A stretch of 64,000 nucleotides of DNA from Bacteroidales bacterium (GTDB lineage Bacteria; Bacteroidota; Bacteroidia; Bacteroidales; FEN-979): assembly GCA_963662525.1 (NCBI GenBank), contig OY759717.1:915436-979435 (forward strand), given 5' to 3'. Below the pieces are notes generated by a model, which was not told the DNA's origin, ran no database searches, and saw only the letters and a program-made list of their open reading frames with translations. Shown here in pieces: positions 13,962 to 29,801 of the stretch (position 1 is the first letter of the stretch; each line of letters begins with the position of its first letter). Both the position numbers and the translations under genes were made by a program.

Positions 13962-13966
13962 AATCC

Positions 13967-14419: not shown

Positions 14420-14460
14420 ATGAACAAATGTTCATTATGAACAAATGTTCATTATCTTTG
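14420..14460. promoter_or_regulatory. Tandem operators ATGAACAAATGTTCATT x2 plus -7 box, in the divergent DUF134 / nifX-like intergenic region
   Basis: TGAAC-AAAT-GTTCA occurs at 14421-14434 and at 14438-14451 as an exact 17-nt direct repeat. TATCTTTG (TAnnTTTG) lies at 14453-14460. A minus-strand box (CAAAAGTA) lies at 14402-14409. Confidence 0.75.
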
Positions 14461-14489
14461 CATAATAATATTTTTCAAATTCATAAAAA

Positions 14490-14810
14490 ATGAAGATTGC
14501 AATTGCTTCTGCAGGAAATACTCTTGATTCAAAGGTTGATCAACGTTTCAGTCGCTGTTCATATTTCGCCATTTTTGACCTGGTGACCGATTCTGTTGAA
14601 TTTATTGAAAATCCGAATAAAGAAGCCCTGAACGGAGCTGGACCTGCTACGGTTCAACTTGTCGCTTCCAAAGGGATTCAGAAAATCATCTCTGGCGAAT
14701 TTGGCGTAAAAATCAAACCTATACTTGATAATCTTAAAATACAAATGATTGTCAATCAGGAATCTGAAAAAAGTATTCAACAAATAATTGAATTATTAAA
14801 AAAATCATAA
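14490..14810 (+). CDS. NifB/NifX/NafY-domain protein
   Basis: MKIAIASAGNTLDSKVDQRFSRCSYFAIFD... and ...IISGEFGVK. Confidence 0.7.
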   Translation: MKIAIASAGNTLDSKVDQRFSRCSYFAIFDLVTDSVEFIENPNKEALNGAGPATVQLVASKGIQKIISGEFGVKIKPILDNLKIQMIVNQESEKSIQQIIELLKKS

Positions 14811-14811
14811 T

Positions 14812-14991
14812 ATGCCACATCTGAATGGTACTGGCCCCGAAGGACAAGGTTCCGGAACAGGCCGTGGATTAGGAAAGTGCAAAAAAGCACCGGAAAAGGA
14901 AGCCTTACAAAAATTAGGGAAAGGCATAGGCAAACGTCGCAATGCAGGAGGAGGTAAAGGCAAAGGGAAACGTTTAAAAAGCGGACAATAA
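14812..14991 (+). CDS. DUF5320-like small Gly/Lys-rich protein (59 aa, below the ORF-track cutoff)
   Basis: Hand translation gives MPHLNGTGPEGQGSGTGRGLGKCKKAPEKEALQKLGKGIGKRRNAGGGKGKGKRLKSGQ. The MP..GTGP.G.G..TGRG.G.C start is typical of DUF5320. Confidence 0.55.
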   Translation: MPHLNGTGPEGQGSGTGRGLGKCKKAPEKEALQKLGKGIGKRRNAGGGKGKGKRLKSGQ

Positions 14992-15016
14992 GTATTTATT
15001 CAACAATCAAATTATT

Positions 15017-15265
15017 ATGCCAGGATTAAATCAAACAGGCCAGATGGGACAAGGTCCGATGACAGGTTTCAGAATGGGTCGCTGCTCAAAATTTGTAGCA
15101 AATTTCAAAAATGAAACCACTGATTCCATCGAAAGACCAGTTAAAAACCAGACAGAAAATTTTCCCGATAACGGTTTTTCATCCGGAGAAGGAAGAGAAT
15201 TTGGCCGGGGTTTTGGAAGAGGTCATGGAATGGGGCGGCAAAATCGGTTCAGGGATGGGTCTTAA
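15017..15265 (+). CDS. DUF5320-like small protein
   Basis: MPGLNQTGQMGQGPMTGFRMGRC... with a GRGFGRGHGMGR tail. Confidence 0.6.
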   Translation: MPGLNQTGQMGQGPMTGFRMGRCSKFVANFKNETTDSIERPVKNQTENFPDNGFSSGEGREFGRGFGRGHGMGRQNRFRDGS

Positions 15266-15329
15266 TTTACACATCGAGACTGAAGTGTCTCCCTTATTTT
15301 AAATTCTACACTTTTAATATATAATAACG

Positions 15330-15698
15330 ATGATAAAACGTATTGCTATCCCTATGGAAAATGGGGTTTTATGTGCTCATTTTGGCCATTGCCAAACTTT
15401 TGCCATTGTCAATGTTGAAAACGACATCATTACAGATATCAAAGAAGTTGAACCTCCTGAGCATGTTCCGGGATTATATCCACGCTGGATTGCTCAATTT
15501 GGCGTTACGGATGTTATTGCCGGAGGGATGGGACAACAGGCAATCATGTTATTCAACCAACAAAATATCAATGTTTTTGTAGGAGCACCGGTAAAAAAAG
15601 CGGAAGAACTGGTTAGCGATTTCACTGCCAATAAATTGGATCTGAACGCCAATTATTGCAATCATGACCATTCCGGGCATACCCATCACGGGCATTAA
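15330..15698 (+). CDS. NifB/NifX/NafY-domain protein with His-rich tail
   Basis: RIAIPMENGVLCAHFGHCQTFAIVNVEN, VIAGGMGQQA, and C-terminus NHDHSGHTHHGH. Confidence 0.7.
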   Translation: MIKRIAIPMENGVLCAHFGHCQTFAIVNVENDIITDIKEVEPPEHVPGLYPRWIAQFGVTDVIAGGMGQQAIMLFNQQNINVFVGAPVKKAEELVSDFTANKLDLNANYCNHDHSGHTHHGH

Positions 15699-15704
15699 TC
15701 TTTT

Positions 15705-16580
15705 ATGAAAATTGCCATTGCCAGTGGTAAAGGGGGAACCGGAAAAACCCTTATTTCTACCAATATTTTTTATTCCCTGCTGCTGAATCATTACAGGCCT
15801 TTGCTGGTTGATTGTGATGCTGAAGCACCCAATGCCATAGCTTTCTTTGAAACGATCCTGGAAAAAACGATAGAAATAACCCAACAGGTCCCGGTGATCG
15901 ATACCACAATTTGTACGTTTTGTGGAAAATGTCATGAATACTGTAACTACAACGCTATATTTTTTCTTCCCTACATGAAGATCATTCAGGTCGCTGAAGA
16001 ACTTTGTCATGGATGCGGTGCCTGCAGTGTTGCCTGTGGTTACGGAGCCATTACTGAAAAACCCGTTTCACTTGGTCAAGTTTCATTATATACGCTGAAT
16101 GGCATTCCATCCCTGGTCGAAGCAAGAATGAATATTGGAGGCATGACTCCGGTCCCGCTGATTAAAGGAGCATTAAAACAAATCCATTCTGATACGGAAA
16201 TTACCATTCTTGATTCCCCGCCAGGAACTTCCTGTCCGTTCATCACCACTGTCTCGGCGGCTGATTATGTCATCCTGGTCACTGAACCAACCCCATTCGG
16301 GCTGAGTGATTTAAAACAAAGTGTTGATACGCTGAAACAACTTGACAAGCCCTGCGGAGTCATTATTAACCGTGCTGGTTTGGGAAATAAATCCGTTCAT
16401 CAGTACCTGGAACAGGAAAATATCCCGCTTTTACTCGAAATCCCATTTGATAAAAGAATTGCCGAAACATACGCCAGGGGACAGTTGGTGATTGAAACCC
16501 AACCCTTGCTCGGTGAACAGTTATATATGACAGTCAAAACAATCATGGAACAACATGGAAATAGCAGTCATCAGCGGTAA
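15705..16580 (+). CDS. MinD/ParA-type P-loop ATPase with inserted 4Fe-4S ferredoxin domain
   Basis: KIAIASGKGGTGKT deviant Walker A, with CTFCGKCHEYC and CHGCGACSVAC inserts. Confidence 0.75.
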   Translation: MKIAIASGKGGTGKTLISTNIFYSLLLNHYRPLLVDCDAEAPNAIAFFETILEKTIEITQQVPVIDTTICTFCGKCHEYCNYNAIFFLPYMKIIQVAEELCHGCGACSVACGYGAITEKPVSLGQVSLYTLNGIPSLVEARMNIGGMTPVPLIKGALKQIHSDTEITILDSPPGTSCPFITTVSAADYVILVTEPTPFGLSDLKQSVDTLKQLDKPCGVIINRAGLGNKSVHQYLEQENIPLLLEIPFDKRIAETYARGQLVIETQPLLGEQLYMTVKTIMEQHGNSSHQR

Positions 16581-17415
16581 AGGAGGCACCGGAAAATCAA
16601 GTATCAGCGCAGCATTGGCAACTTTAAGTGAATGCGTGATGATTGCAGATTGTGATGTGGATGCGGCCAATCTTTACCTGCTGTTTAACCCGACCCATGA
16701 AGAAGAAATAGTTTATATCGGGGGACACAAAGCAAAACTTGATGGCACGAAATGCAACAATTGCGGAATTTGTCTTGAATATTGTCGTTTTGATGCTATT
16801 TCCCGGATCCAGGAAAGAATTACTATTTCGCCGACTGCCTGCGATGGTTGTTTTCTTTGCTCCCGTATTTGTCCGCAAAATGCCATAAACATGATACAGA
16901 ATGATCAAAGCCGTTTATATTCCGGTTCCTTCCGAAATGGAAAAATGGTTTATGGTCGTCTTGCTCCTGGTGAAGAAAATTCCGGGAAACTGGTAAATAT
17001 GGTCCGTGAAAAAGCGAAAAAGATAGCCAAAGAAAATCAGTTGAATACCATAATCCTTGATGGCCCCCCGGGCATCGGATGCCCGGTCATTTCAACCATT
17101 ACTGGCGTTGATCAGGTGATCATCGTGACGGAACCAACAATATCCGGGTTACACGACATGCAAAGAACCTATGCAGTCGTTCAGAAATTTAGCTTGAAAT
17201 CCCGGGTCATTATTAATAAATTCGATTTAAATCATGCGTTGAGCAATACCATCGATTTATGGTGTAAAGAACAGGAAATTCCTGTTATTGGATATCTGCC
17301 ATTTGATAAGCAAGTGGTAGAAGCCATGGTTCAAGGGATGACCATCATAGAATGGGCACCGGAACAGGAAATCAGTAAAATAATTAGACAAATCTGGAGT
17401 TACATACAAAACTAA
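16555..17415 (+). CDS. MinD/ParA-type P-loop ATPase with inserted 4Fe-4S ferredoxin domain (paralogue)
   Basis: EIAVISGKGGTGKSS, CNNCGICLEYC and CDGCFLCSRICP. It overlaps the upstream paralogue by 26 nt. Confidence 0.75.
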   Translation: MEIAVISGKGGTGKSSISAALATLSECVMIADCDVDAANLYLLFNPTHEEEIVYIGGHKAKLDGTKCNNCGICLEYCRFDAISRIQERITISPTACDGCFLCSRICPQNAINMIQNDQSRLYSGSFRNGKMVYGRLAPGEENSGKLVNMVREKAKKIAKENQLNTIILDGPPGIGCPVISTITGVDQVIIVTEPTISGLHDMQRTYAVVQKFSLKSRVIINKFDLNHALSNTIDLWCKEQEIPVIGYLPFDKQVVEAMVQGMTIIEWAPEQEISKIIRQIWSYIQN

Positions 17416-18213
17416 ATGATCATGAGTCAACTTTTTGAAAAAATCCCCATGGAAGGGGTAAAAAACATTATCGTTATTGCCTCCGGCAAAGGGGGTGTAG
17501 GTAAATCTACGGTAGCAGCCAACCTGGCTATCGCCCTGGCCCGGAACGGATTTAAAACAGCCCTGGTGGATGCTGATATTTATGGACCATCTATTCCGAA
17601 AATGTTCGGTATTGAAGATGCCAGGCCGGATGTAAGTGCCATTGGCGACAAAGAAATGATGTACCCCATTGAAAAGTTTGGAGTGAAGATCATGTCGATC
17701 GGGTTCTTTGTAGCACCTCATCAATCCTTGATCTGGAGAGGTCCTATGGCCTCCAATGCCATCATGCAATTATTCGAGAATACCCAATGGGGAGATATCG
17801 ATTATATGATTATCGACTTCCCTCCGGGAACTGGCGATATCCAGCTTACAACGGTTCAAAAACTGAATCTTACCGGTGCCATTATGGTGACCACTCCCCA
17901 GGAAATTGCCGTAAATGATGCCCGTAAAGCTGCTTCTATGTTTCTCAATCCGGATCTGAAAGTGCCGGTTCTGGGCATCATAGAGAACATGTCGTGGTTT
18001 AGCCCGGAAAAGCATCCGGAAGAACAGTATTTCATTTTCGGTCAGGGAGGCGGTCTGAAAATGGCCAAAGAATTCAACACCAAATTACTGGGTCAAATTC
18101 CACTGGTCATGGAAGTCGGTGAAGCTGCCGAACAGGGCAAGAGTGTTTTCAGTCAGCGCAATAACACTGTTGTCAAAGCATTTGAGAAAATCGCCGAAGC
18201 TATTATTTCTTAA
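17416..18213 (+). CDS. Mrp/NBP35/ApbC-family Fe-S cluster carrier ATPase
   Basis: VIASGKGGVGKSTVAANLA, DADIYGPS, MIIDFPPGTGD. The ATG follows the upstream TAA directly. Confidence 0.8.
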   Translation: MIMSQLFEKIPMEGVKNIIVIASGKGGVGKSTVAANLAIALARNGFKTALVDADIYGPSIPKMFGIEDARPDVSAIGDKEMMYPIEKFGVKIMSIGFFVAPHQSLIWRGPMASNAIMQLFENTQWGDIDYMIIDFPPGTGDIQLTTVQKLNLTGAIMVTTPQEIAVNDARKAASMFLNPDLKVPVLGIIENMSWFSPEKHPEEQYFIFGQGGGLKMAKEFNTKLLGQIPLVMEVGEAAEQGKSVFSQRNNTVVKAFEKIAEAIIS

Positions 18214-19363
18214 CGCTTTTGGCTGACTGGATCAGGTTGGAAAAATAAATAGCAAAGGGACGATAAGCCAGATGCGACCATTTCGAAAAGGGAACTTCGA
18301 TCATCAACATGGGAAACAGGATCATCAGGTGGATGACATAAATGTAATAGGTGGCCATGACCATCCCGTTTACCCTGAAAATATGAACCAGAATTCCGGT
18401 AAGGGCTGTCAGGAAAAGCAGGATCAGAAAAGTCCAGTCAGTATAATGTGAAACTTTCGACTTCTCATTCTCTTTTTTCATACGAAGCACAGAGAAATAA
18501 ACAACCCCAAATACGAGTCCGAAAGTTGTATAATATCCTAAAAGCCTTTGTGGGTGCCACCAGGCATGGATTGTATCGGTCTGGAACCACCCCAGGAAAC
18601 CCACGATCATCGTAAACAGCATAACGTAACTCGACATCAGTAAAAAATGGATGATCCAATAATTCAGTTTCCCACTTTTTACTTTCTCATAAAATGATAT
18701 CTTCTCCGTTTCACACTCAACAAGTCTCCATTGAGAAGCAAAATGAAAAACCAATTTTCCAAATTCAGTGAAATACAATTTATAAGGAATCACTAAATCT
18801 TTCTGGCTTAACACAATCTTCCGGTACATATTAAAAACATTCGACAATAAAAAAAAGGATAATAGCCCTGCCATGATCCAATCTCCCATCTCGATGATCT
18901 GCCATGGGGCAAACGTATTCAACTTCACGCCTCCCTGTTCAGTCAACGCTTCAGTCATGGGACCATGAAAAAAAATAAACAGGAAAAGGATCAGCAGCGA
19001 AAGAAAAGCAATCGCTCCTAACTCCCAGATTTTTGATGTATAGAATTTTTTCGACAAACCCGTCCAATCATAGGATCCTGTCAGGTACCTGCGCATAGCC
19101 ATCATCAGCTGCCCGGGATCGGCATTCCGCGGACAGGTCTCGGTACATTCCCCACAGTAATAGCATAACCAGGGATCAACCGAAGATTCAAGCTCATCTT
19201 TCAGCCCTAAAAGACTATATCTTAATGTTTTCCTTGGGAAAGAATTTTTTTCATCAGAAAGAGAGCAGATCGCCGTACAATTTCCACAGTTATAGCAAGC
19301 ATTAAAATCCCCGGCTCCGTATTTCCGGATCTCATCGGCAAAAAATGGGTCAATCATTGACAT
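18203..19363 (-). CDS. QmoC-like fusion of an HdrC-type 2x[4Fe-4S] domain with an HdrE/NarI-like membrane domain
   Basis: N-terminal CYNCGNCTAICS and CYYCGECTETCP, followed by about 6 TM helices containing conserved His. Confidence 0.65.
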   Translation of the reverse strand: MSMIDPFFADEIRKYGAGDFNACYNCGNCTAICSLSDEKNSFPRKTLRYSLLGLKDELESSVDPWLCYYCGECTETCPRNADPGQLMMAMRRYLTGSYDWTGLSKKFYTSKIWELGAIAFLSLLILFLFIFFHGPMTEALTEQGGVKLNTFAPWQIIEMGDWIMAGLLSFFLLSNVFNMYRKIVLSQKDLVIPYKLYFTEFGKLVFHFASQWRLVECETEKISFYEKVKSGKLNYWIIHFLLMSSYVMLFTMIVGFLGWFQTDTIHAWWHPQRLLGYYTTFGLVFGVVYFSVLRMKKENEKSKVSHYTDWTFLILLFLTALTGILVHIFRVNGMVMATYYIYVIHLMILFPMLMIEVPFSKWSHLAYRPFAIYFSNLIQSAKSVKK

Positions 19364-19369
19364 CAGGAT

Positions 19370-21382
19370 TTATTTTTTGAGTTGATAGCGATAATACTCG
19401 TCATTATCATCCATTCCGGCAGGTTCAAGTAGGAAATATTTGTTCATGGTCATCATATGCCAGGTCACCAGTTCTGCCGGAATTGAAATTGCTTCTGCAA
19501 CCTGGCGTATCGTCCTGGGCTCATTATCTTTTAAGGTATCTATGATAGAACGCCATATAGATGGAAAGTCTTTCATTCCATGCCCTGATTCCATCTCTGA
19601 TTCTGTACCGTTTTCACCTTTACTCTTCAGATCGACCGCTTTCATAAATCCATCAATCATGCCTTCAATTTCATCATTGGTAAACTGAGCAAGATCGATG
19701 GCATCTATCGGACAAACGGGGGTACACATTCCACAACCCTTGCAAACGGCTTCATTGACCGAAGCCACAACTTTGCCATTGGTTTCCATCTGAAAGATGG
19801 CATCAAATTCACATACATCCTGGCATTTCCCGCAATAATTGCAACTTTCGGCATCAATCCTTGCAATGATGGGTTCTAATTCGAGGGTTCCTTTCCGGAT
19901 GATTGCGTTAATTTTGGCTGCTGCTGATAAGGAAGACTGAACTGACTCTGAGATGTTCTTCGGTCCCTGGCATGATCCTCCCAGGAAAATGCCATTGATG
20001 ACTGTCTCAACAGGCCGGAGCTTAGGATGAATCTCATTAAAGAATCTATCGTTGCCCATGGGAATTTTTAATTTTCCGGCCACATCAGAGCTATCAGATC
20101 TGGGAATCATACCATTAACCAGAATAAGCAGATCTACCAGGATATCCATTTCCTTCTTTTCGGTCAGGTAATCCCTGATCTTTATCCGCACACCTCCTTG
20201 TTCTGCTGTCGCCTGGGGAGGATCTTTCTCCTGGTACATCAGGTAAATATCGCCAAGCCTGGATGATTTTTCAAAGAGGATTTCCTGCTTGCCATAAGTC
20301 CTGATATCACGATACAGATGAAATGCTTTGATTCCGTTGAATTTTTCATGCATGCTGATGGAAGAATGGATGGCAGCAGTACAGCAAACCCTGGAGCAGT
20401 ATTTATTTTCACCCTTGGTCTGACGCATTCCTACACAATAAATATAGGCAACAGAACGAACGACTTTTCCATCAATTTTCAAGTTTCCATGAGAAGATTT
20501 GACCAACTTGTCAAAATCATTGATAGTAAGTATACTGGGGCTGGTTCCAAAGCCATATTCTTTTTCCAATGGCTGATAGGATTCATATCCGGTGGTCACC
20601 AGAATAGCACCTGCAGTAAGATTTAATACTTCTTCCTTCACGCCCTTTACATTTACATCTATCTTGAAATTTCCCAGGCTGCCACTCACTTTTACTACCT
20701 GAGCTGAAGTGAACAAGGTAATATTGGCTTGTTTACGTATTGTTTCGAGAAGGGTATCGATCAATTTCTGTCCTTCTTCATTGATCGGGAATAATTGACC
20801 TTTTCCCGCAAGACTTCCTCCAACCTGGTCTTCTTTCTCTATCAGGTAAACCTGATTTCCCATCCTGCCAAGATCGATGGCTGCACGCAAGCCGGCAACT
20901 CCTGCCCCTATGATAAGCACAGTTTTATGAGCAGTGATTTTAATATTTTCGAGTGCCTCTGAATGAGCCACTCGTCTGATTCCCGCCCTGATCAGCCCGG
21001 CTGCCTTATAAGATGCCTGATCCGGATGATCGGAGTGCGCCCATGAACATTGTTCTCGAACATTTACCTGAACATAGTTGTACGGATTTAATCCGGCCCG
21101 TTCAGTCACTCCCCTGAAAGTATGAAGGTGAAGTTTAGGAGAACAGGATGCTACCACGATTCCGTCAAGTTTCTGCGCCTGTATATCCTTCACCATTTCC
21201 TTCTGGTTGGAGTCTGCACAAGCGAACATGACGTTCTTGGAAACGACCACACCTTCTTCATCTCCGGCTATATCACGCAGTTGCTCAACATCCACATAAT
21301 CGGAAATATTTCCGCCACAGTGGCAGATATAGACCCCTATCCTTTGTTTTTTGGTTTTATCTTCCATAATCTGTTGGTTCAT
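19370..21382 (-). CDS. hdrA: HdrA-type heterodisulfide reductase flavoprotein subunit
   Basis: N-terminal domain RIGVYICHCGGNISDYVDV...VVASCSPKLH...REQCSWAH, FAD site VLIIGAGVAGLRAA, YIYCVGMRQ...YCSRVCC, and C-terminal CNYCGKCQDVC / CKGCGMCTPVCP. There is an extra ~100-aa tail. Confidence 0.75.
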   Translation of the reverse strand: MNQQIMEDKTKKQRIGVYICHCGGNISDYVDVEQLRDIAGDEEGVVVSKNVMFACADSNQKEMVKDIQAQKLDGIVVASCSPKLHLHTFRGVTERAGLNPYNYVQVNVREQCSWAHSDHPDQASYKAAGLIRAGIRRVAHSEALENIKITAHKTVLIIGAGVAGLRAAIDLGRMGNQVYLIEKEDQVGGSLAGKGQLFPINEEGQKLIDTLLETIRKQANITLFTSAQVVKVSGSLGNFKIDVNVKGVKEEVLNLTAGAILVTTGYESYQPLEKEYGFGTSPSILTINDFDKLVKSSHGNLKIDGKVVRSVAYIYCVGMRQTKGENKYCSRVCCTAAIHSSISMHEKFNGIKAFHLYRDIRTYGKQEILFEKSSRLGDIYLMYQEKDPPQATAEQGGVRIKIRDYLTEKKEMDILVDLLILVNGMIPRSDSSDVAGKLKIPMGNDRFFNEIHPKLRPVETVINGIFLGGSCQGPKNISESVQSSLSAAAKINAIIRKGTLELEPIIARIDAESCNYCGKCQDVCEFDAIFQMETNGKVVASVNEAVCKGCGMCTPVCPIDAIDLAQFTNDEIEGMIDGFMKAVDLKSKGENGTESEMESGHGMKDFPSIWRSIIDTLKDNEPRTIRQVAEAISIPAELVTWHMMTMNKYFLLEPAGMDDNDEYYRYQLKK

Positions 21383-21388
21383 TTCTCC

Positions 21389-24142
21389 TTACACCCCATT
21401 CCCACTTAAATAAGCTGCTACTTCAGATGCTGCTGCTCCCGCAGATAAAATGGAATCAGGAATATCCATGGGAGCGGCTGCCGTGCCTGCAACAAATACA
21501 CCTTTCATGCTGGTCCTGCTTGGATTTAGCATCAATTCCGGTTGTTTGATATAGCGGAATTCATCTAAAAGCGGCGACTCGCTTTTAAAGGAACGCATCA
21601 CACCATTATCAGGTAAAACCCCCACAGAAAGAACCACCAGGTCATGGGTGAATTCTTTCACTTTACCGGTTTCAATATTTTCCACTCGAAGTGCCAGATC
21701 TCCGCTGTGATTCTCCTTCTCGTTGATGCTGGAGACTTTTCCCTTAATAAAGTTAATCCCCATGGATTTCGACTGCTGATAAAATTCCTCATATCCTTTA
21801 CCGAAGGCACGGATATCAATATAATAGATGGAGATATCAGCCATGGGTAGCGCCCCCATCAGTAATTGTGCCTGTTTGATCGAGTACATGCAGCATATCT
21901 GTGAGCAGATGGGATTGTTAACCGCGGCTAGGTTGCAGCTTCGGAAATTCTCGAGACTACTGTCACGCGATCCGGTACATAAAATATAGGCAATATTCCC
22001 GGGTGCCTTGCCATCGCCGGGACGCAGAACATTATTATAAGGACGCGTAGGAGCAATGATCCTGTCCATCTGCAGGGAATCAATTACATTGGCAAATCTT
22101 ATAGAATTATATTGTGGCTTATGTTCAGGTTTGAAAAGCTGGAATCCTGATGCAATAATTACAGCGCCCACATGAGCTTTGACTTTTTCTGTTTTCTGTG
22201 AGAAATCTATAGCAAAAGCTGGACAGGCGGAAATACATTGATGACACTCCCGGCAATTGCTGCAATCAAGGCAGCGTAACGTACTCTGGTGAACTTCTTC
22301 CTCTGTGAAAGTCAACTCTACTTCTTCGAAATCCTGGATCCTTTCTGCAACAGGCCTGACTTTGTCACTCAAAGCTGGCTGATGTAAAATACCGGGCCTG
22401 GATAAAATAGTATTTTTATCGATTGCCGGAAGCTTATCTCCGAATTCATAATTACCCAGGTCAAGTCCCTGCAAATATTTATCTATATAATACGCTGCTC
22501 TTTTACCCTGACCTGCTGCTTCTATGATCGTACTTGAACCGCTAACCGAATCACCACCGGCAAAAAGCCAGGAAAAGGAACATTGCATCGTATTGGAATC
22601 GACTTTTATCCGGCCATCTTTTTCCAGATCCAATTCCTTTTTGAATGGAGAAGTGGTTGGGTATAAACCGATAGCCTCAATCACCAGATCAACATCTTCG
22701 GTATATTCCGAACCTTTAACTTCCACCGGTTTTTTCCTGCCACTGGCATCCGGTTCACCTAATTTCATCTTGATCATTACTGCCTGGCTGATCTTTCCAT
22801 CTGTTCCGGAAAAACTTATTGGATTTCTAAGCAGCTGAAAAACAACACCTTCATCTTCTGCTTCCCTGATCTCTTCTTTCCATGCCGGCATCTCTTCCCG
22901 GCTTCTGCGATAAATAATGGATACTTTTACAGTCCCCAGTCTCATGGCAGTACGGGCCGAATCCATGGCAGTATTCCCACCGCCAATAACCATTACTTTC
23001 TTTCCCTTCAGATTGATTTTTGTACCGATTTTTGAATCTCTCAGGAAATCAAGACAAGAAACTACCCCCTTCATTTCGCTTCCGGGGATATTCAGCTTGC
23101 TGGTCTGATGCGTTCCGACTGCAATAAAAATCGCATCAAAACCTGATTCTTTTAATTCCTTTAAATGTTCAACCGGGTGATTGCATGCGATTTCAACACC
23201 AAGAGCAGTAATATTTTCAATATCCCGATCGACCACGGTGTTAGGCAGACGATATTCAGGGAGGGTCAGCTTCAACATTCCTCCAGCTTCCGGAGCGGCT
23301 TCATAAATTTTTACCTGGTGGCCGTTCAGCGCGAGATGATATGCTGCAGTAAGTCCTGCCGGACCAGAACCTACAATAGCAATTTTTTTTTCGCTTGTTT
23401 TTTCAATGCTTTTTCTAGATGCTGCCGGATATTTAGTATAATAATTTTCTGTAAAAAATCTTTTTATCCTGCGGATATCCACAGGAGCTTCAAGGCTTGC
23501 CCGTGTACATTCTCCCTGGCAGGGAGCATAACACGCACGGCCAAGGCTGCCGGGTATCGGAATATCCTCCATATGAAGGTGAAAAGCTTCTTCATATTGG
23601 CCGTTTCTAACGAGAGAAATATATCCATACGGTTTAACGCCACCGGGACAGGCAGCAATGCAGGGGGCAGAAGTATCCTGCCGATCAATGAATGCAATGC
23701 GGGGACTCGCGAGACTGAATGGGATATAAGCCACTTTCCGGCCTGCCAGGTGATGATTGTATTCATCAGAGCGAACTTCAGGACAGGCCAATTCACACTC
23801 CTGACAACCCGTGCATGACTCTGGTTTGACGTATCTGGGATGTTTTGTAATTTCCAAATGAAAGCCTTTGTCATTTCTGGTAATGTTATCCAGGTCACTA
23901 CCCATCATCAGGGTAATATTGGAATGTCTGGCTGTTTCAGACATTTTCGGAGTCGTGATACAGGCGGCACAGTCCAGTGTAGGAAAAACCTTGCTTAATT
24001 GTATCATCTTACCTCCTATCGACAGGTCTTTCTCTACCAATAAAACCTGGTAGTCCATATTGGCCAGCGTTAATGCGGCCTCCTGGCCGGCAATACCACC
24101 ACCGATCACCAGTACATCAAATTTTTTTTCCTGATTGTTCAT
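21389..24142 (-). CDS. HdrL-like large HdrA homologue with inserted GltD/NfnB-type NAD(P)H module
   Basis: HdrA N-terminus FDVLVIGGGIAGQEAA and core YILCTGSRD...ICSQICCMY are split by a GltD-like block (CIAACPGG..., KIAIVGSGPAGLTAAYHL, VMVIGGGNTAMDSARTA, YRRSREEMPAWKEE). Confidence 0.7.
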   Translation of the reverse strand: MNNQEKKFDVLVIGGGIAGQEAALTLANMDYQVLLVEKDLSIGGKMIQLSKVFPTLDCAACITTPKMSETARHSNITLMMGSDLDNITRNDKGFHLEITKHPRYVKPESCTGCQECELACPEVRSDEYNHHLAGRKVAYIPFSLASPRIAFIDRQDTSAPCIAACPGGVKPYGYISLVRNGQYEEAFHLHMEDIPIPGSLGRACYAPCQGECTRASLEAPVDIRRIKRFFTENYYTKYPAASRKSIEKTSEKKIAIVGSGPAGLTAAYHLALNGHQVKIYEAAPEAGGMLKLTLPEYRLPNTVVDRDIENITALGVEIACNHPVEHLKELKESGFDAIFIAVGTHQTSKLNIPGSEMKGVVSCLDFLRDSKIGTKINLKGKKVMVIGGGNTAMDSARTAMRLGTVKVSIIYRRSREEMPAWKEEIREAEDEGVVFQLLRNPISFSGTDGKISQAVMIKMKLGEPDASGRKKPVEVKGSEYTEDVDLVIEAIGLYPTTSPFKKELDLEKDGRIKVDSNTMQCSFSWLFAGGDSVSGSSTIIEAAGQGKRAAYYIDKYLQGLDLGNYEFGDKLPAIDKNTILSRPGILHQPALSDKVRPVAERIQDFEEVELTFTEEEVHQSTLRCLDCSNCRECHQCISACPAFAIDFSQKTEKVKAHVGAVIIASGFQLFKPEHKPQYNSIRFANVIDSLQMDRIIAPTRPYNNVLRPGDGKAPGNIAYILCTGSRDSSLENFRSCNLAAVNNPICSQICCMYSIKQAQLLMGALPMADISIYYIDIRAFGKGYEEFYQQSKSMGINFIKGKVSSINEKENHSGDLALRVENIETGKVKEFTHDLVVLSVGVLPDNGVMRSFKSESPLLDEFRYIKQPELMLNPSRTSMKGVFVAGTAAAPMDIPDSILSAGAAASEVAAYLSGNGV

Positions 24143-24537
24143 GAGAGCTCAGCTAAAATTTTACTGAAATTGGCCATGTGACTTGCAAACGATTCTGCAC
24201 AAACGGAACACAGCGCAGCCATTCGGATACGCTTGGGGCTTATCCCCTTCTCCTTCATCTGTTTCTGTGCTTCTGTGATGATATTGTTGGTCAATTCCGG
24301 ACAGCGGGAGCTGAAGGAACATTCATGTCCATCAGCTGCAATAAAAACGCCATCGAAACCCTGCTCAAAAGCACGTAGTATCCACCTTGGTTTTATCCCC
24401 GATGAACAGGGAAGGCTGATTACATATACCGATGGCGAATAATGAATTTTACGCAAACCGGCCTGGTCAATACCCGGATCAGAAATCTTTTCGGTAGAGA
24501 AAACCAGAATCTTAGGTGATCTTTGGGCTAAATTCAT
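24139..24537 (-). CDS. MvhD/FlpD-like [2Fe-2S] electron-transfer subunit
   Basis: KILVFSTEK...ISLPCSSGIKPRWILRAFEQGFDGVFIAADGHECSF. The track start 24582 is a TTG, so ATG 24537 is preferred. The stop overlaps the HdrL start. Confidence 0.7.
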   Translation of the reverse strand: MNLAQRSPKILVFSTEKISDPGIDQAGLRKIHYSPSVYVISLPCSSGIKPRWILRAFEQGFDGVFIAADGHECSFSSRCPELTNNIITEAQKQMKEKGISPKRIRMAALCSVCAESFASHMANFSKILAELS

Positions 24538-24645
24538 GTTTTTAATTATAAATACCTCACCCGGGAAAGTTTTAGCGATCAACCTTCTGCTTCATTTTAT
24601 AAATGAACAAGGAAAAAATAATGGAGGTATCCGGGTGAGGAAAAA

Positions 24646-24897
24646 TTATGCTTTCTTAAGAAACAGTCGGGAGTAACTATCTTCTTCAACAATACCAAGG
24701 TATTCATGACTCATCTTCTGGCACCATCTGGGAATATCTATTTTTGTACCTTCATCAGCAGAATAAATCTCCATAATTTCACCGGATTCTATTTCCCCAA
24801 TGGCTTTCTTGGCAGCCAATAATGGTCCAGGACAGGCAGTACCACGTGCATCAACAATTTTATTCGATTTTAGATTTTTTAATTCTTCTAAGCTCAT
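24646..24897 (-). CDS. tusA: TusA-family sulfurtransferase
   Basis: VDARGTACPGPLLAAKKAI (CPxP motif) in an 83-aa protein. Confidence 0.8.
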   Translation of the reverse strand: MSLEELKNLKSNKIVDARGTACPGPLLAAKKAIGEIESGEIMEIYSADEGTKIDIPRWCQKMSHEYLGIVEEDSYSRLFLKKA

Positions 24898-24914
24898 TAT
24901 GTATTCTCCTTATA

Positions 24915-25460
24915 TTATATGAATAATTGAATTTTGCTTTCCTGTGCATCAGATAAAAATGTTCCCACTCCACAAATTGTCATTTCCGGGTAATCAATCA
25001 TTTCTTCTTTTTTAAATCCCATCAGATTCATCGACATCTCACAGATATTGATTTCAACTCCAAGTTCTGCGGCCGTTTTAAACATCTCTTCCAGAGATGC
25101 AACCTTATGTTTCTTCATGATCCCTTTGATCATTAATGTTCCCATTCCCCACATGTTCATATTTGAAAGTTTAACTTTCCTGCTTCCTTTAGGGAGCATT
25201 ATACCAAACATTTTCTCCATTAAATTCTTCCCTTTCCCGCTCTTCAGGGGATCCCTCAATGAAGATATAGCCCAGAAAGTAAAAAACAATTTAACTTTCA
25301 TATCATAGGCCGCAGCTCCGGTTGCTATTATCAAGGCAGCCAGAATCTTGTCCATGTCGCCTGAGAATACGACCATGGAAACCTGGTCCTTTGTTCCAGC
25401 TTCAAGCTTTCCAATACGCTTTTGAAGATCAGATAATTGTTGTTCAAAATTATCATTCAT
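24915..25460 (-). CDS. DsrE/DsrF-like family protein (COG2210-type, coiled N-terminus)
   Basis: VSMVVFSGDMDKILAALIIATGAAAYDMKVKLFFTFWA...ICEMSMNLMG. It is the first gene of the operon. A putative minus-strand -7 box lies at 25504-25511. Confidence 0.6.
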   Translation of the reverse strand: MNDNFEQQLSDLQKRIGKLEAGTKDQVSMVVFSGDMDKILAALIIATGAAAYDMKVKLFFTFWAISSLRDPLKSGKGKNLMEKMFGIMLPKGSRKVKLSNMNMWGMGTLMIKGIMKKHKVASLEEMFKTAAELGVEINICEMSMNLMGFKKEEMIDYPEMTICGVGTFLSDAQESKIQLFI

Positions 25461-25563
25461 GAAATTGATATTTTATATATTAATATAGTTAGATTTATGC
25501 TTACAAAAATAAAAGTGTTATTGTAATGTATAGACTGTCGTCTTGTGGTGTATTTCGCAAATA

Positions 25564-25583
25564 AATGTGATATTTGTCACATT
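25564..25583. promoter_or_regulatory. Perfect CRP/FNR-type palindrome AATGTGA-TATTTG-TCACATT
   Basis: TGTGA at 25566-25570 and TCACA at 25577-25581. It lies in the divergent region between the dsrE-tusA-hdr operon and the cobO-like operon. Confidence 0.65.
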
Positions 25584-25623
25584 GTTCTCCGGCAAATTTT
25601 TCATAGAAATAAAAAAAACACTA

Positions 25624-25647
25624 ATGAACAAATGTTCATTATTTTTG
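25624..25647 (+). promoter_or_regulatory. Operator ATGAACAAATGTTCAT fused to -7 box TATTTTTG (cobO-like operon promoter)
   Basis: This is the same composite as at 14437-14460 and 29778-29801: TGAAC-N4-GTTCA, then 1 nt, then TAnnTTTG. Confidence 0.7.
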
Positions 25648-25728
25648 TGAAAAATTATTTTTGGTCATTTATATAATTCACCTCAATCCCAGACGGAAAA
25701 TTCTTTATTGTTATTCAAGCCGGATTGA

Positions 25729-26244
25729 ATGAAAGGATATCTGCAAGTATATACCGGAAACGGAAAAGGTAAAACGACTGCTGCTTTAGGACTGGCTCTG
25801 AGAGCAGCAGGGGCCGGTAAAAAGGTATTCTTTGCCCAGTTTGTTAAAGGAATGCCCTATTCGGAAATTGATGCTATCCATAAATTTATCCCTGAAATTC
25901 ATGTACAACAATTCGGACGTGATTGTTTTATCATCAATGAACCCACGGAAGAGGATATTGTTGCCGCACGCCTGGGCTTACAAAAAGTATCGGAGATAAT
26001 GGCCACAGGGAATTATGATTTGATTATCTTAGATGAGGCCTGCATCGCTGTTTTTTATCAATTATTCTCCGTTGAAGAATTAATGGAGGTTCTGAAAGGA
26101 AGACCCGAATTTATGGAAGTCATTGTCACCGGCCGATATGCAAGCCCTGAACTGATAGAAATGGCCGACCTGGTAACCGATATGACAGAAATTAAACATT
26201 ATTATAAGCAAGGGATTATTGCCAGAAAAGGAATTGAGTTCTAA
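25729..26244 (+). CDS. Cob(I)yrinic acid a,c-diamide adenosyltransferase family P-loop protein (CobO/BtuR-like)
   Basis: MKGYLQVYTGNGKGKTTAALGLALRAAGAGKKV...LIILDE. Confidence 0.75.
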   Translation: MKGYLQVYTGNGKGKTTAALGLALRAAGAGKKVFFAQFVKGMPYSEIDAIHKFIPEIHVQQFGRDCFIINEPTEEDIVAARLGLQKVSEIMATGNYDLIILDEACIAVFYQLFSVEELMEVLKGRPEFMEVIVTGRYASPELIEMADLVTDMTEIKHYYKQGIIARKGIEF

Positions 26245-26263
26245 TGATTATTATACCCGTTAA

Positions 26264-27124
26264 ATGTTCATGGATGATTTAACCCCTATCCTGATAAAAG
26301 TCGTTCTGGAAACACTGAAGATCACCCTGATTGTTTTTGTCATGATGGTTCTGGTTGATTTGCTTAATGTTTGGACGAATGGAAATATTACCAGGTTTCT
26401 TCAAAAAGGAAGCCGGTTTAAGCAATATGTTTTATCTTCCTCGATTGGAGCGCTGCCTGGTTGTTTCGGAGCCTTTACCAATGTTTCTTTATATGTCCAT
26501 GGCCTGATCAGTTTAGGAGCCCTCACCGGAGCAATGGCCGCTGCCTCGGGAGATGAAGCCTTTGTTATGCTTTCCCTCTTCCCGAAAACGGCACTAATAC
26601 TGATCCTTATCCTTTTTATAATTGGAATTCTGGTTGGCTGGACCACCGACATGTTGATTAAAAAAACCGGGTTTAAACCTTGTATTGACTGTAAAGACCA
26701 GAAAGTGCACCCCAGGGAAAGAGGATTTGTTCACTATATGAAAGAACATGTCTGGACTCATATTATTAAAAAACACCTATGGAAAACAATGTTATGGACA
26801 TTTGGCGCCATGCTATTTGTCGAATTCGGAATTCAGTTTTTCCATCTGGATTCATTTTCCACGCAATATCCCATGGTACTCCTCTTTATTGCAGCCTTGA
26901 TGGGTCTTATCCCTGAATCGGGACCTCATATGGTATTTATCAGCCTTTATGCCGCCGGATTGGTCCCTTTCCCGGTTTTATTCACCAGTGCCTTTGTTCA
27001 GGATGGACATGGCATGTTGCCCATGCTTTCATATTCTGTTAAAGATTCTCTTTTGATAAAATCTGTGAATCTTGGCATTGGTATATCATTGGGGCTGATC
27101 ATGCTTTTAACAGGTATAAAATGA
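26264..27124 (+). CDS. Polytopic membrane protein, ArsP_2 / putative metal permease-like
   Basis: About 8-10 TM helices. Motifs GALPGCFGAF, IPESGPHMVF and QDGHGMLPML resemble that family as I remember it. Confidence 0.45.
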   Translation: MFMDDLTPILIKVVLETLKITLIVFVMMVLVDLLNVWTNGNITRFLQKGSRFKQYVLSSSIGALPGCFGAFTNVSLYVHGLISLGALTGAMAAASGDEAFVMLSLFPKTALILILILFIIGILVGWTTDMLIKKTGFKPCIDCKDQKVHPRERGFVHYMKEHVWTHIIKKHLWKTMLWTFGAMLFVEFGIQFFHLDSFSTQYPMVLLFIAALMGLIPESGPHMVFISLYAAGLVPFPVLFTSAFVQDGHGMLPMLSYSVKDSLLIKSVNLGIGISLGLIMLLTGIK

Positions 27125-27753
27125 AATCATTATTCGAACAATTATCAACCGACATACGTTTTCAGGAAGGACTGAATGCCTGCATCAGTTGTGGTACCTG
27201 CACGGCCATTTGTCCTGCTGCCCAGTTTTCCGACTACGACCCGAGAACCTTGGTCGAAACGGTCCAAAGAAGAGATGAATCGCTGTTACTGGATTTATTA
27301 AAAGGTGATACCATCTGGCGTTGCGGAGAATGTCTTTCCTGTAAAACCCGCTGTCCCAGGGGAAATACACCCGGGTATCTCATTCAGTCGCTCCGTGCTT
27401 TATCTATAAAAACAGGTGTGTTTGCAGATTCTGAGCAGGGAAGATTTCAACTTCACCTGAAAAGAACATTGGGCGAACATATGCTAAAGTACGGGTATTG
27501 CGTGTATATTGATGAAATTGATACTGATCATTACCCGGAGCAGGGACCGGTATGGGAATGGTACAGGGAGAACAGGATAGCCATCCTTGATCGTTTAGGC
27601 TCCAATTATAATCAGAAGGGTGCTGGCACCCTGAGAAAGATATCTGATCAATCCCTGGCCGATCTTCAGGCTATTTTTATCGAAACAGGTGCAATAAAAC
27701 GTTTTGAACAAATCGAAAGTGCTTGCCGGAAAGGAGTTTCAGATGAAAAATAA
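27121..27753 (+). CDS. hdrC: HdrC-like heterodisulfide reductase Fe-S subunit
   Basis: CISCGTCTAICP and CGECLSCKTRCP. The ATGA overlaps the upstream stop. Confidence 0.7.
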   Translation: MKSLFEQLSTDIRFQEGLNACISCGTCTAICPAAQFSDYDPRTLVETVQRRDESLLLDLLKGDTIWRCGECLSCKTRCPRGNTPGYLIQSLRALSIKTGVFADSEQGRFQLHLKRTLGEHMLKYGYCVYIDEIDTDHYPEQGPVWEWYRENRIAILDRLGSNYNQKGAGTLRKISDQSLADLQAIFIETGAIKRFEQIESACRKGVSDEK

Positions 27754-28807
27754 AAATCAGCAATGGCTGAACTATCAAAAAGAAATTGCCGACGATCATT
27801 ATTATTTCGCACGCTCCTGCATCCGGCAAAACTTTTTTCCCGCTTCTGAGACCATTTTTCTGAAAATCCTGCGCGAAGAACTAGGGAAGGATATTTTCGA
27901 CGACCCGGAACAAACCACTTGCACCGGTATTGCCTATCATTCAGGGATCCTCCCCTTTGAAACAACCATGACGGTAGTTGCCCGGCAATTTGCCCTGATG
28001 ACCGAAGCCGGATATGAGAATTTCGTTTGCTCCTGTGTCACCTCCTTCGGCATTTATACAGAAGTACTGGAAACCTGGAGAAACTTTCCAGAGGAGGAAA
28101 AAAAAACACGGGATGCACTGTTCAAGGCCACCGGGAAAACCTTCAAAATTCCAGCCAACCTTGTGCATACCAGCGATATCATCTATAAATTCAGAAATGA
28201 AATAGCTGAGAAAGCAAGGCTTACATTGAAAAACCATCTCACGGGAGATGCTTTGAAAATTGTAGACCATATCGGATGTCATTATGCTAAAATTTTTCCC
28301 TCGAAAGGGATCGGAGGAGCCGAATATCCGTATGTCCTTGCCGGCCTGATCGACAGCTGGGGCGGTCAGCAGGTTGATTACCCTGAACGCAGGCACTGCT
28401 GTGGATTTGGGTTCAGGCAATACCTGATTAAAGAAAACAGGGGGTATTCATTGTCAAATTCCAGAAAAAAATTTGAATCCATGCAGCCTTACCATCCGGA
28501 TCTGATCATTGCCAATTGCCCGGGCTGTACATTTTTCCTCGATCGCTGGCAATATGTCATCAGTGAAACTGAATGTAAAACATACGACACAGAAGGATAC
28601 GGATTTCCGGTGTTGACCTATGAAGAACTCGCGGGATTGGTTCTTGGATATAATCCATGGGATCTGGGATTGCAGCTTCACCAGGTGGATGTTGAACCAC
28701 TTTTACGCAAACTTGGAGTAAATTATTCACCTGCCGGTAAATACCTGGGAAAAAACGGAGTAAATTTGGGGCAACCTGAAAAACCGGGACGACTCAAAAC
28801 CGGATGA
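27743..28807 (+). CDS. hdrB: HdrB-like subunit (CCG domains)
   Basis: CCG-type cysteines (TCTGIAYH, CSCVTSFG, RRHCCGFGF, NCPGCTFF). The track start 27704 is a TTG; ATG 27743 overlaps the hdrC stop. Confidence 0.65.
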   Translation: MKNKNQQWLNYQKEIADDHYYFARSCIRQNFFPASETIFLKILREELGKDIFDDPEQTTCTGIAYHSGILPFETTMTVVARQFALMTEAGYENFVCSCVTSFGIYTEVLETWRNFPEEEKKTRDALFKATGKTFKIPANLVHTSDIIYKFRNEIAEKARLTLKNHLTGDALKIVDHIGCHYAKIFPSKGIGGAEYPYVLAGLIDSWGGQQVDYPERRHCCGFGFRQYLIKENRGYSLSNSRKKFESMQPYHPDLIIANCPGCTFFLDRWQYVISETECKTYDTEGYGFPVLTYEELAGLVLGYNPWDLGLQLHQVDVEPLLRKLGVNYSPAGKYLGKNGVNLGQPEKPGRLKTG

Positions 28808-28822
28808 ACAAACAAGGCCAGA

Positions 28823-29746
28823 ATGAATGATCATTCACCTCATAATAACCCTTCGGGTCGGTTAATCATAAGCATTTTACTCAATGGTTTGATTACCATT
28901 GCAGAGATTGCTGGTGGTATTTTTTCCAACAGCCTGGCATTGATTTCCGATGCCATCCATAACCTGAGTGATACCATGGCACTGATCCTTGCCTGGACAG
29001 CCAATAAAGTCGGCAGAAGGAAACCGGACACCAGACGTACCTTCGGATATAAACGCTTTGAAATCCTTTCCGCTTTTATAAATGCCTCTGTATTAACTGC
29101 GATTTCCATCTACCTTATCTATGAAGCCGTCTTGAGGGTTCTTCACCCTGAACCGGTCAAATCGGGAATCATGTTTATTATAGCCCTGGCAGGTTTATTG
29201 GCCAACCTGATTTCCATGTTATTCCTGCGCAGGGATTCCAAACACAGCCTGAATGTCAAAGCCGCTTACCTTCATTTATTGGGTGACACCCTTTCATCTA
29301 TTGCCGTCATAGCAGGCGCTGCCCTGATTTATTTCACCCAAATCCTTTGGATAGATCCTGTCATGACCCTTATCATCAGCATAGTTATCATCATTCAAGC
29401 CTATAAAATTCTTCGTGAGTCAATTGATATCCTCATGCAGAGCACCCCATCCAGACTAAATCTTGACGAAATCAGGGAAGTTATTGAAAAACACCCCCTG
29501 GTCAGGAATTTACATCATGTTCACTGCTGGCAATTACAGGACCAAGACGTCCTTTTTGAAGCCCATATTGAAGTAGAAAAAGACATGAAGGTGAGCGAAT
29601 CCAACATCCTGATGGAAGAAATCCGGCATCTCCTGGCCAAGCATTTCCAGATTTCCCATACCACACTACAAGCAGAGTATGATTGCTGTGAAGATACTGA
29701 GATGATAAAACTGAAAGTTGACCGGAAAATTCAGCGCCACATCTAA
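28823..29746 (+). CDS. Cation diffusion facilitator (CzcD/ZitB-type) metal efflux transporter
   Basis: SLALISDAIHNLSD and LHLLGDTLSS motifs, 6 TM helices and a cytoplasmic C-terminal domain. Confidence 0.8.
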   Translation: MNDHSPHNNPSGRLIISILLNGLITIAEIAGGIFSNSLALISDAIHNLSDTMALILAWTANKVGRRKPDTRRTFGYKRFEILSAFINASVLTAISIYLIYEAVLRVLHPEPVKSGIMFIIALAGLLANLISMLFLRRDSKHSLNVKAAYLHLLGDTLSSIAVIAGAALIYFTQILWIDPVMTLIISIVIIIQAYKILRESIDILMQSTPSRLNLDEIREVIEKHPLVRNLHHVHCWQLQDQDVLFEAHIEVEKDMKVSESNILMEEIRHLLAKHFQISHTTLQAEYDCCEDTEMIKLKVDRKIQRHI

Positions 29747-29777
29747 AAAATCCTAAATAGAAAATAACACTTGTATT

Positions 29778-29801
29778 ATGAACTTTTGTTCATTATTTTT
29801 G
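29778..29801 (+). promoter_or_regulatory. Operator ATGAACTTTTGTTCAT fused to -7 box TATTTTTG (peroxiredoxin promoter)
   Basis: TGAAC at 29779-29783, GTTCA at 29788-29792 and TATTTTTG at 29794-29801, 38 nt before the ATG. Confidence 0.7.

Follow-up and report, generated by a model that had tools for sequence, protein, structure and literature searches.

The orp divergon of Desulfovibrio vulgaris Hildenborough, with its regulator OrpR (DVU2106; PMC8359166, PMC3897727, PMC6345978), is the closest described counterpart of the system reported here. Our system lies in a 64-kb stretch of a Bacteroidales genome (contig OY759717.1, positions 915,436 to 979,435; the whole stretch is called the window and is numbered from its first nucleotide), where four palindromes with the core TGAAC-N4-GTTCA accompany a gene for a helix-turn-helix (HTH) protein of the DUF134 family. 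As in the orp divergon, the genes form two divergent operons, and their composition is that of an ORP (orange-protein complex) cluster, with small NifX-like proteins (Di-Nase/ORP), a pair of MinD-type ATPases that contain Fe-S (ferredoxin) motifs, and a carrier of the Mrp/NBP35 type. Both systems are specific to anaerobes, and they share a dedicated regulator gene within the cluster, palindromic sites and self-repression, which for the window is a proposal of this work. The regulators differ. OrpR, which senses through a [4Fe-4S] PAS domain, activates transcription as a sigma-54 enhancer-binding protein, and its regulon is limited to the two orp operons. In contrast, the window has primary-sigma Bacteroidota promoters with the operator in the spacer, a repressor geometry, and a putative regulator of 138 amino acids from the DUF134 family; no sigma-54 enhancer-binding protein was found among the open reading frames (ORFs) scanned between 4439 and 38657. 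The predicted regulon is also wider than that of OrpR, including HdrCB-like, CobO-like and peroxiredoxin genes, and Cys/Met-PLP genes in other genomes. Moreover, the Mrp protein of the window (265 amino acids) lacks a fused Di-Nase domain, scoring 266.9 bits against the MrpORP equivalog cut-off of 450, and the Di-Nase proteins are encoded by separate genes. Judged by gene content and promoter sequence, a dedicated regulator other than OrpR accompanies the ORP-like genes outside Desulfovibrio.

We consider it quite probable that the four palindromes are operators of the DUF134 protein encoded at 13967-14383, and that this protein represses its own operon and the other targets in the window by steric hindrance in response to a cluster-dependent signal. 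DUF134 would most likely bind ATGAAC-N4-GTTCAT as a dimer and, once bound, would exclude the primary-sigma RNA polymerase from the promoter. Its targets would be the divergent DUF134-NifX-NifX-TonB receptor and NifX-DUF5320-DUF5320-NifX-MinD/Fer4-MinD/Fer4-Mrp operons, besides a CobO-like/ArsP_2/HdrCB-like/CDF operon and a 1-Cys peroxiredoxin gene. Taken together, these targets are an ORP-like set of genes for the handling of iron-sulfur clusters. The signal may be read via a metal-sulfur cluster in the adjacent NifX-like protein, which in many species is fused to DUF134, in the Cys4 ribbon of DUF134, or in both. IscR, SufR and RirA, which control genes for Fe-S assembly and Fe-S carriers, are HTH proteins that regulate themselves and sense cluster status via cysteine ligands. 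The logic proposed for DUF134 is the same, but the protein families are unrelated and the putative sensor would be the Cys4 ribbon and/or a NifX-like (Nitro_FeMo-Co) domain.

The sequence ATGAACAAATGTTCATT occurs twice in exact tandem, at 14420-14436 and 14437-14453, and a third time at 25624-25640, and the fourth site, ATGAACTTTTGTTCATT, lies at 29778-29794; these sites and positions agree with those given in an initial annotation of this DNA. All four are intergenic, and all contain the extended form ATGAAC-N4-GTTCAT, a 16-bp palindrome. The 64 kb contain exactly four perfect matches to the TGAAC-N4-GTTCA core, whereas dinucleotide-preserving shuffles of the window give 0.08 on average and one at most. 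When one to three mismatches were allowed across the 64 kb, only background-level counts were obtained and no further sites were indicated, so the palindromes are a sharp, discrete class. At three sites TAnnTTTG follows exactly 1 nt past the core, a fixed spacing that the initial annotation had also described, and the 24-nt unit ATGAACWWWTGTTCATTATNTTTG (palindrome plus box) has three exact matches where 0.01 would be expected. Counting both strands, the window has 51 copies of TAnnTTTG, or about 4e-4 per position and strand, and given this rarity three boxes at one identical offset are not due to chance.

TAnnTTTG at -7 is the promoter element of the Bacteroidota primary sigma factor (PMC7366714). 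The boxes of the window fit this element; those of the plus strand end 30, 82 and 38 nt before the start codons at 14490, 25729 and 29839, respectively. The G+C content of the organism is 43%, and many unrelated genes also have TAnnTTTG at the usual distance before their start codons, in line with this promoter type. As for the -33 TTTG element, CTTG is present at site 4 only and none is recognisable at sites 2 and 3. On the minus strand, the box TACTTTTG (14402-14409) is 11 nt from site 1, as previously noted, and the start of the DUF134 gene is 38 bp from that site.

The motif and the DUF134 gene are associated in both directions. One genome per species (185,579 species) was scanned with the pattern ATGAACNNNNGTTCATTANNTTTG, the -7 box being required, which gave at least 119 stretches, nearly all from Bacteroidota, where about 17 were estimated by chance with equiprobable bases. 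Among the matches listed, 70 of 121 sites have a DUF134 homologue (31-53% identical) encoded by the first ORF behind the promoter, and 84 of 119 motif-bearing loci contain a DUF134 gene, compared with five that contain a Crp-family ORF. The other first genes among these matches encode NifX-like, DUF5320, Cys_Met_Meta_PP, HdrC-like and ARMT1-like proteins, a methyltransferase, an 80-amino-acid Cys-rich membrane protein with no Pfam match and a Gly-rich zinc-ribbon peptide. In the reverse direction, 80 metagenome loci (41-74% identity) were chosen by DUF134 protein similarity alone, and the core with at most one mismatch was found within 250 bp upstream in all 75 loci that had at least 80 bp of upstream sequence, being exact in 57 of them. 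The core usually lies 42-50 nt before the ATG, with TAnnTTTG immediately after it. In the 394 kb of these loci there are 66 exact cores where 0.45 would be expected, and a -7 box abuts 59 of the 66, so the placement of the operator in the promoter spacer, first pointed out for the window, is conserved in loci that were collected blind to the motif. The association with DUF134 is thus near-obligate.

Of 175 operator sites, 119 lead into DUF134, and DUF134-NifX is the commonest operon core, with NifX in 114 of the 175 gene chains behind operator-bearing promoters. The target families of the window recur in this position in other genomes (DUF5320, 28; MinD-Fer4, 23; Prx, 9; Mrp, 8; HdrC, 8; CobO, 2), along with ferritin (3). 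The initial annotation had suggested that other genomes be scanned for the motif; in about 200 loci the sites lie in promoters of a coherent gene set, and the DUF134 regulator is found in Bacteroides, Phocaeicola, Parabacteroides and Prevotella. What had been presented as a local regulon does have an instance in the window, but it is not merely local, since it is conserved across Bacteroidota and a small sample shows it in other phyla too. One gene found repeatedly in first position after DUF134-type operators, often situated just upstream of DUF134, encodes a membrane protein of 78-87 amino acids with CxxC...CxxxC and no Pfam match (L023, L029, L040, L088, L092, L101, L104, L113 and L114 in our set of compared loci).

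An alignment of 117 sites, in which the half-sites are fixed by the search pattern itself, gives a more detailed view of the operator. The central 4 nt are free: ATAT and AAAT prevail, and both GTAG and GCAG occur. The left flank, which was unconstrained, mirrors the right one (T at -2 in 98/117 and A at -3 in 80/117), with a weak extended symmetry AT-n-ATGAAC-N4-GTTCAT-n-AT. From these mirrored flanks the dyad extends to about 22 bp, its outer TA being the TA of the -7 box. Thus, the TGAAC-N4-GTTCA operator of the initial annotation is real as a core, but the actual operator is longer, about 16-22 bp. In about half of the 117 sites a -33-like TT(G/T) element is located 4 nt upstream of the operator, and phased A-tracts are found further upstream. 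The spacer between the -33 element and the -7 box is 20 nt and is filled by the operator; as the operator also overlaps the TA of the -7 box, a bound protein would block the polymerase, which points to repression. About 15 of the 121 genome-scan promoters among the matches listed and about half of the metagenome loci have another operator exactly 26 bp further downstream, where transcription is predicted to start, and this also fits repression. The distance of 26 bp corresponds to 2.5 helical turns, and the second copy often has one mismatch (L141-L204 and others); the copies in the window are 17 bp apart.

The orthologous loci of close relatives have a simpler arrangement. The DUF134 orthologues L003 (82% identity), L005 (71%) and L007 (67%) each have a single exact TGAAC-ATTT-GTTCA directly beside a -7 box in the region from which DUF134 and its partner diverge, and this one operator serves both divergent promoters. 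The partner across the operator differs among the three: DUF5320-Mrp, Mrp-HdrC-HdrB or CobO-ArsP_2-HdrC-HdrB. The last is found in L007, where CobO-ArsP_2-HdrCB is divergent from DUF134 and the operator is common to both. Targets that are separate in the window therefore adjoin the regulator in its relatives. Further sites precede Cys_Met_Meta_PP genes in the relatives, in one case followed by peroxiredoxin (L007). The exact 17-bp duplication is found only in the source genome among the compared loci (L001 being the same locus), and the DUF134 -7 box is 18 nt beyond the operator in the relatives compared with 11 nt in the window. The extra tandem copy, to which the initial annotation had drawn attention, is therefore present but peculiar to this genome, and the comparison suggests that it arose by recent slippage, giving each divergent promoter its own operator.

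Beyond Bacteroidota, distant DUF134 loci were collected by tblastn of annotated plasmid and chromid records, and eight were compared. The gene order headed by DUF134 is also that of an ORP cluster in Peptoclostridium (DUF134-NifX-ATPase-ATPase-MrpORP), while Selenomonas has Mrp followed by a DUF134-NifX fusion, and the order is DUF134-NifX-PaaI on Klebsiella plasmids and in Salinivibrio. The dyads of Firmicutes, Spirochaetes and Gammaproteobacteria have the same 6-4-6 layout and are found upstream of DUF134, NifX or Mrp, with extra sites before Mrp in Selenomonas and before NifX in Salinivibrio, but their half-sites differ. Sites of the ATTGAC-ATAT-GTCAAT type occur in Roseburia, Selenomonas, Treponema, Peptoclostridium and Subdoligranulum, whose recognition helices read (S/A)R(A/T)T(I/V)(Q/T), and sites of the ATTGGC/ATTAGC type occur with SRQT(F/L) helices in Acetoanaerobium, Klebsiella plasmids and Salinivibrio. 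In Bacteroidota, the helix SRPTFTR is paired with the half-site ATGAAC. This parallel change of half-site and recognition helix is, in spite of the small sample, the strongest argument that DUF134 is the binder and not merely a conserved target. Together with the two-way association of motif and gene, it strongly favours the earlier suggestion that the adjacent DUF134 HTH protein regulates its own promoter, as judged from sequence comparison.

A 4HBT/PaaI-type thioesterase gene recurs by DUF134-regulated genes (L005, 6965-7363; L007, 6070-6453; L213; L214), divergent from the Cys_Met_Meta_PP promoter in Bacteroidota and directly after DUF134-NifX in Gammaproteobacteria. In L214 (Klebsiella quasipneumoniae plasmid NZ_CP034132.1, 47538-49483) it belongs to a DUF134-NifX-PaaI thioesterase-Dps cassette. 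This cassette is carried on conjugative enterobacterial plasmids, with about 170 similar records (Klebsiella 69, Citrobacter 57, Escherichia 17). Its neighbours are an IS5075 transposase and a gene of the ArsR family, and upstream of DUF134 there are two dyads centred on GCATATGC.

The properties of the DUF134 protein are consistent with such a role. The protein of the window has an HTH similar to sigma-70 region 4, with the recognition helix ISRPTFTR, and a C-terminal CxxC...CxxC ribbon. In the alignment of Bacteroidota DUF134 proteins SRPTFTR is invariant and a W-x-C-x2-C...C-x2-C ribbon is common to all. An AlphaFold2 model (mean pLDDT 81, above 90 over the HTH) indicates a DNA-binding fold: the modelled HTH superposes at 0.6-0.9 A over 40-50 residues on sigma region 4, including that of an ECF sigma factor, and on the operator-bound DNA-binding domain of the SorC-family regulator DeoR from B. 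subtilis (PDB 7bhy, 5fgm, 3hug), the latter being 35% identical to DUF134 over 40 residues. Unlike these proteins, DUF134 has a conserved N-terminal PxFxGFKPxG segment and the C-terminal Cys4 ribbon, and it lacks both the SorC sugar-binding domain and sigma regions 2 and 3. Its predicted target is a dyad, whereas that of sigma region 4 is the -35 hexamer. No structure of the family was found in a search of solved structures.

The DUF134/UPF0251 family comprises 4,797 clusters at 50% identity. The top 150 matches of a search of representatives are all close relatives of the window protein, and a homologue search with the HTH core alone gave truncated Bacteroidota proteins and none from distant phyla. 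All ten long family members tested are fusions of DUF134 with Nitro_FeMo-Co, as are the Phocaeicola and Bacteroides forms, and other DUF134 proteins have an extra Cys/His-rich module resembling small regulon peptides. It is plausible that the NifX-like partner domain is the cluster sensor of DUF134. A literature search for a transcription factor that senses via a NifX-like (Nitro_FeMo-Co) domain found none, and we know of no such factor. A further search, confined to the published literature, found no functional description of DUF134, UPF0251, COG1342 or PF02001, or of the motif.

As the direction of regulation is deduced from the position of the operator and from the second operators over the start, it must be considered whether DUF134 binds these sites as an activator or dual regulator, either by a MerR-like remodelling of the spacer or with its HTH replacing weak -33 recognition. 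MerR-type regulators bind between the two promoter elements, and their dyads are centred about -20, as is the case here; the operator is indeed placed exactly between -33 and -7. Sites 2 and 3 of the window, lacking a recognisable -33 TTTG, the resemblance of the DUF134 HTH to sigma region 4 and the positive control of the analogous orp genes in Desulfovibrio (PMC8359166) also speak for activation. However, the 20-nt spacer is normal and not over-long, the -33-like TTG/TTTG is kept in about half of the 117 sites, the operator overlaps the TA of the -7 box, and a second operator is present over the start at +26 in many DUF134 promoters. DUF134 also has no MerR domain. The normal spacer and the second operators over the start make steric repression more likely than a MerR-type mechanism, and we regard activation by DUF134 as unlikely, although it deserves attention.

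If the binder were a protein other than DUF134, the first one to be considered would be the FNR-like member of the Crp family whose gene (30870-31577) follows that of the peroxiredoxin at a distance of about 330 bp. The protein has an N-terminal Cys cluster, and a 14-bp palindrome fits the Crp/Fnr family, the FNR site TTGAT-N4-ATCAA having the same 5-4-5 layout. But the crp gene has a perfect TGTGA-N6-TCACA dyad of its own (TGTGAGATAGATCACA, 30838-30853) 17 nt upstream of its start, a second CRP-type dyad, TGTGATATTTGTCACA, is located at 25566-25581, and the same TGTGATATTTGTCACA sequence adjoins the crp orthologue in L003 (8158-8173). The recognition helix of the protein, R-E-x3-K, is one that we take to be CRP-like. 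Considering also its rare co-occurrence with the motif (the five loci mentioned above), we rejected Crp/Fnr as the binder, which seems very improbable. The FNR-like Cys cluster of this protein consists of C14, C16, C17 and C22, and the 25566-25581 dyad lies between the DsrE/TusA/Hdr-like and CobO-like operons, in an intergenic region (25461-25728) that also holds a DUF134 operator. The CRP-type palindromes look like a second, separate regulon, probably redox-sensing.

The initial annotation had also named an ArsR/SmtB-type metal sensor encoded elsewhere, which would control the CDF exporter and related genes. ArsR/SmtB operators contain inverted repeats of the TGAA...TTCA type, and the targets do include a CDF transporter as well as an ArsP_2 permease. 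Nevertheless, a scan of 57 window ORFs found no ArsR/HTH_5 protein, the HTH_5 gene of L003 is in an operon without a TGAAC site, and the conserved core of the regulon is NifX/DUF5320/MinD/Mrp and not metal exporters. Moreover, the motif tracks DUF134 in both search directions and its half-site changes with the DUF134 recognition helix across phyla. This alternative was rejected as still more improbable than the preceding one, and the metal-export reasoning behind it is not supported either.

It is hardly conceivable that the sites are SOS boxes. Several papers describe GAAC-N4-GTTC as the core of the LexA motif, and the Gram-positive Cheo box, CGAAC-N4-GTTCG, has this same core and the same 14-bp dyad layout as the window sites. 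However, Bacteroidetes have no canonical LexA and their SOS regulators bind GGA-N5-TCC or CTAA-N5-TTAG (PMC8565304). Furthermore, no SOS family (lexA, recA, uvr, dinB or umuDC) is among the identified downstream genes, most of the sites leading instead into DUF134 in the count given above, and the outer positions are T/A (then A/T) and not C/G. The LexA/Cheo box was rejected on this literature and on gene content in spite of the common core, and the resemblance is coincidental, the regulon being unrelated to SOS. Equally hard to credit is a palindrome that is not a protein operator at all, such as a mobile or repeated sequence or an RNA hairpin, which the exact 17-bp tandem duplication (14420-14453) and the perfect dyad symmetry might suggest, given that the sites of about 200 loci lie only in promoters of a coherent gene set, that the primary site is upstream of the predicted start and so is not transcribed from that promoter, and that a free central 4 nt between fixed half-sites is the signature of protein recognition; an RNA element was rejected, as no Rfam family matched in 13500-31000.

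Some observations weigh against repression by DUF134 as proposed here, or limit its extent. The promoters are consensus predictions, and binding by DUF134 is deduced from sequence comparison. MerR-type activators also bind the promoter spacer, so the direction of regulation is unproven. Domain fusions and the parallel with OrpR and MrpORP are the sole grounds for the conjectured signal, and the Cys4 ribbon may hold zinc in a purely structural role. In L003, ArsP_2-HdrCB is in a different operon with no site, which indicates that regulon membership varies, and the membership of CobO and CDF is based on few genomes. As the scan required a -7 box and listed at least 119 matches, it does not give the size of the regulon, and the source genome is not among the matches listed. 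The comparison across phyla comprises eight loci, and some of their sites are imperfect (Klebsiella plasmid, Salinivibrio).

The features of the locus are collected in Table 1. Domain scans bear out the identities that had been assigned to the target genes, and NCBIfam relates the genes of the plus-strand operon to MrpORP. The TonB-dependent receptor and MbnP-like genes probably belong to the DUF134 operon, although this is not certain; their order (10255..13320) is repeated in the relative locus L003.

Table 1. Operators, predicted promoter elements and genes of the DUF134 locus (positions in the window)
Feature	Position	Strand	Remarks
MbnP-like protein	10255..11073	-	co-directional with DUF134 operon
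TonB-dependent receptor	11143..13320	-	overlaps NifX-like gene; co-directional with DUF134 operon
Second NifX-like protein, DUF134 operon	13268..13633	-	from domain scan
NifX-like (Nitro_FeMo-Co)	13635..13961	-	directly downstream of DUF134; proposed sensing partner
DUF134 (PF02001), 138 aa	13967..14383	-	Pfam E = 1.2e-19, 71 bits against cut-off of 27
-7 box TACTTTTG, DUF134 operon	14402..14409	-	18 nt upstream of DUF134 ATG 14383; equivalent box kept in relatives
Operator copy 1 (ATGAACAAATGTTCAT plus T)	14420..14436	.	first unit of exact 17-bp tandem; about -33 region of minus-strand DUF134 promoter
Operator copy 2	14437..14453	.	abuts plus-strand -7 box
-7 box TATCTTTG, NifX-like/DUF5320/MinD/Mrp operon	14453..14460	+	ends 30 nt before ATG 14490
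ORP-like operon	14490..18213	+	seven genes, listed below
NifX-like, first gene of ORP-like operon	14490-14810	+	
Two DUF5320 genes	14812-14991, 15017-15265	+	
Second NifX-like of plus-strand operon	15330-15698	+	
Two MinD-type ATPases with ferredoxin inserts	15705-16580, 16555-17415	+	
Mrp/NBP35 Fe-S carrier	17416-18213	+	
Operator copy 3	25624..25639	.	exact core match
-7 box TATTTTTG, CobO-like operon promoter	25640..25647	+	abuts operator copy 3
Site-3 operon	25729..29746	+	CobO-like to CDF
CobO-like P-loop protein	25729-26244	+	
ArsP_2 permease	26264-27124	+	
HdrC-like ferredoxin	27121-27753	+	
HdrB-like CCG protein	27743-28807	+	
CDF transporter	28823-29746	+	
Operator copy 4 (ATGAACTTTTGTTCAT)	29778..29793	.	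-33-like CTTG at 29770-29773
-7 box TATTTTTG, peroxiredoxin promoter	29794..29801	+	abuts operator copy 4
1-Cys peroxiredoxin, predicted regulon member	29839..30537	+	behind site 4

Other genes of the window were observed in passing. Between the two groups of sites, a sulfur/electron-bifurcation-like cluster on the minus strand (18203-25460) encodes DsrE2, TusA, an MvhD/FlpD-like protein, two HdrA-like flavoproteins (917 and 670 amino acids) and a ferredoxin-like protein of 386 amino acids, and a minus-strand -7 box is found near it at 25504-25511. DsrC and a cysteine-desulfurase-like gene are present at the left end of the window (54-1858). The divergent OsmC (36785) and DUF302 (36644) genes have separate -7 boxes at 36761 and 36711. 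Further on, a gene for an ECF sigma factor (37267-37797) is followed by an ORF of 116 amino acids with no Pfam match, possibly an anti-sigma factor, and by a weak Metal_resist match (37267-38657 for the three).

Repressor-operator regulons are already known as a kind, and what is new is the assignment of a predicted operator, a target set and a sensing partner to DUF134/UPF0251 (COG1342), an uncharacterised but widespread HTH family. Even in Desulfovibrio it is unclear what the ORP complex does (PMC8359166), and the predicted regulon links it with peroxiredoxin, HdrCB-like and sulfur-amino-acid genes. The DUF134 genera named above include human-gut and oral bacteria, in which the system could be approached by experiment. 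The pairing of recognition helix and half-site (ATGAAC, ATTGAC, ATTGGC) is a specificity rule that can be tested by swapping, and the operator could be used for regulon annotation and for regulated promoters in Bacteroidota. The recurrent fusion of DUF134 with a NifX-like domain suggests a new type of cluster-sensing domain. More tentatively, and with about as much to be said against the idea as for it, DUF134/UPF0251 proteins may be self-regulating factors for the ORP/NifX-like machinery of anaerobes across phyla, acting on 6-4-6 dyads whose half-site depends on the recognition helix and sensing the state of the cell through a cluster-binding NifX-like domain, either fused or alongside. If this is true, they would form a class of metallocluster-sensing regulator not described before, with the part in Bacteroidota, Firmicutes and Spirochaetes that OrpR and sigma-54 play in Desulfovibrio.

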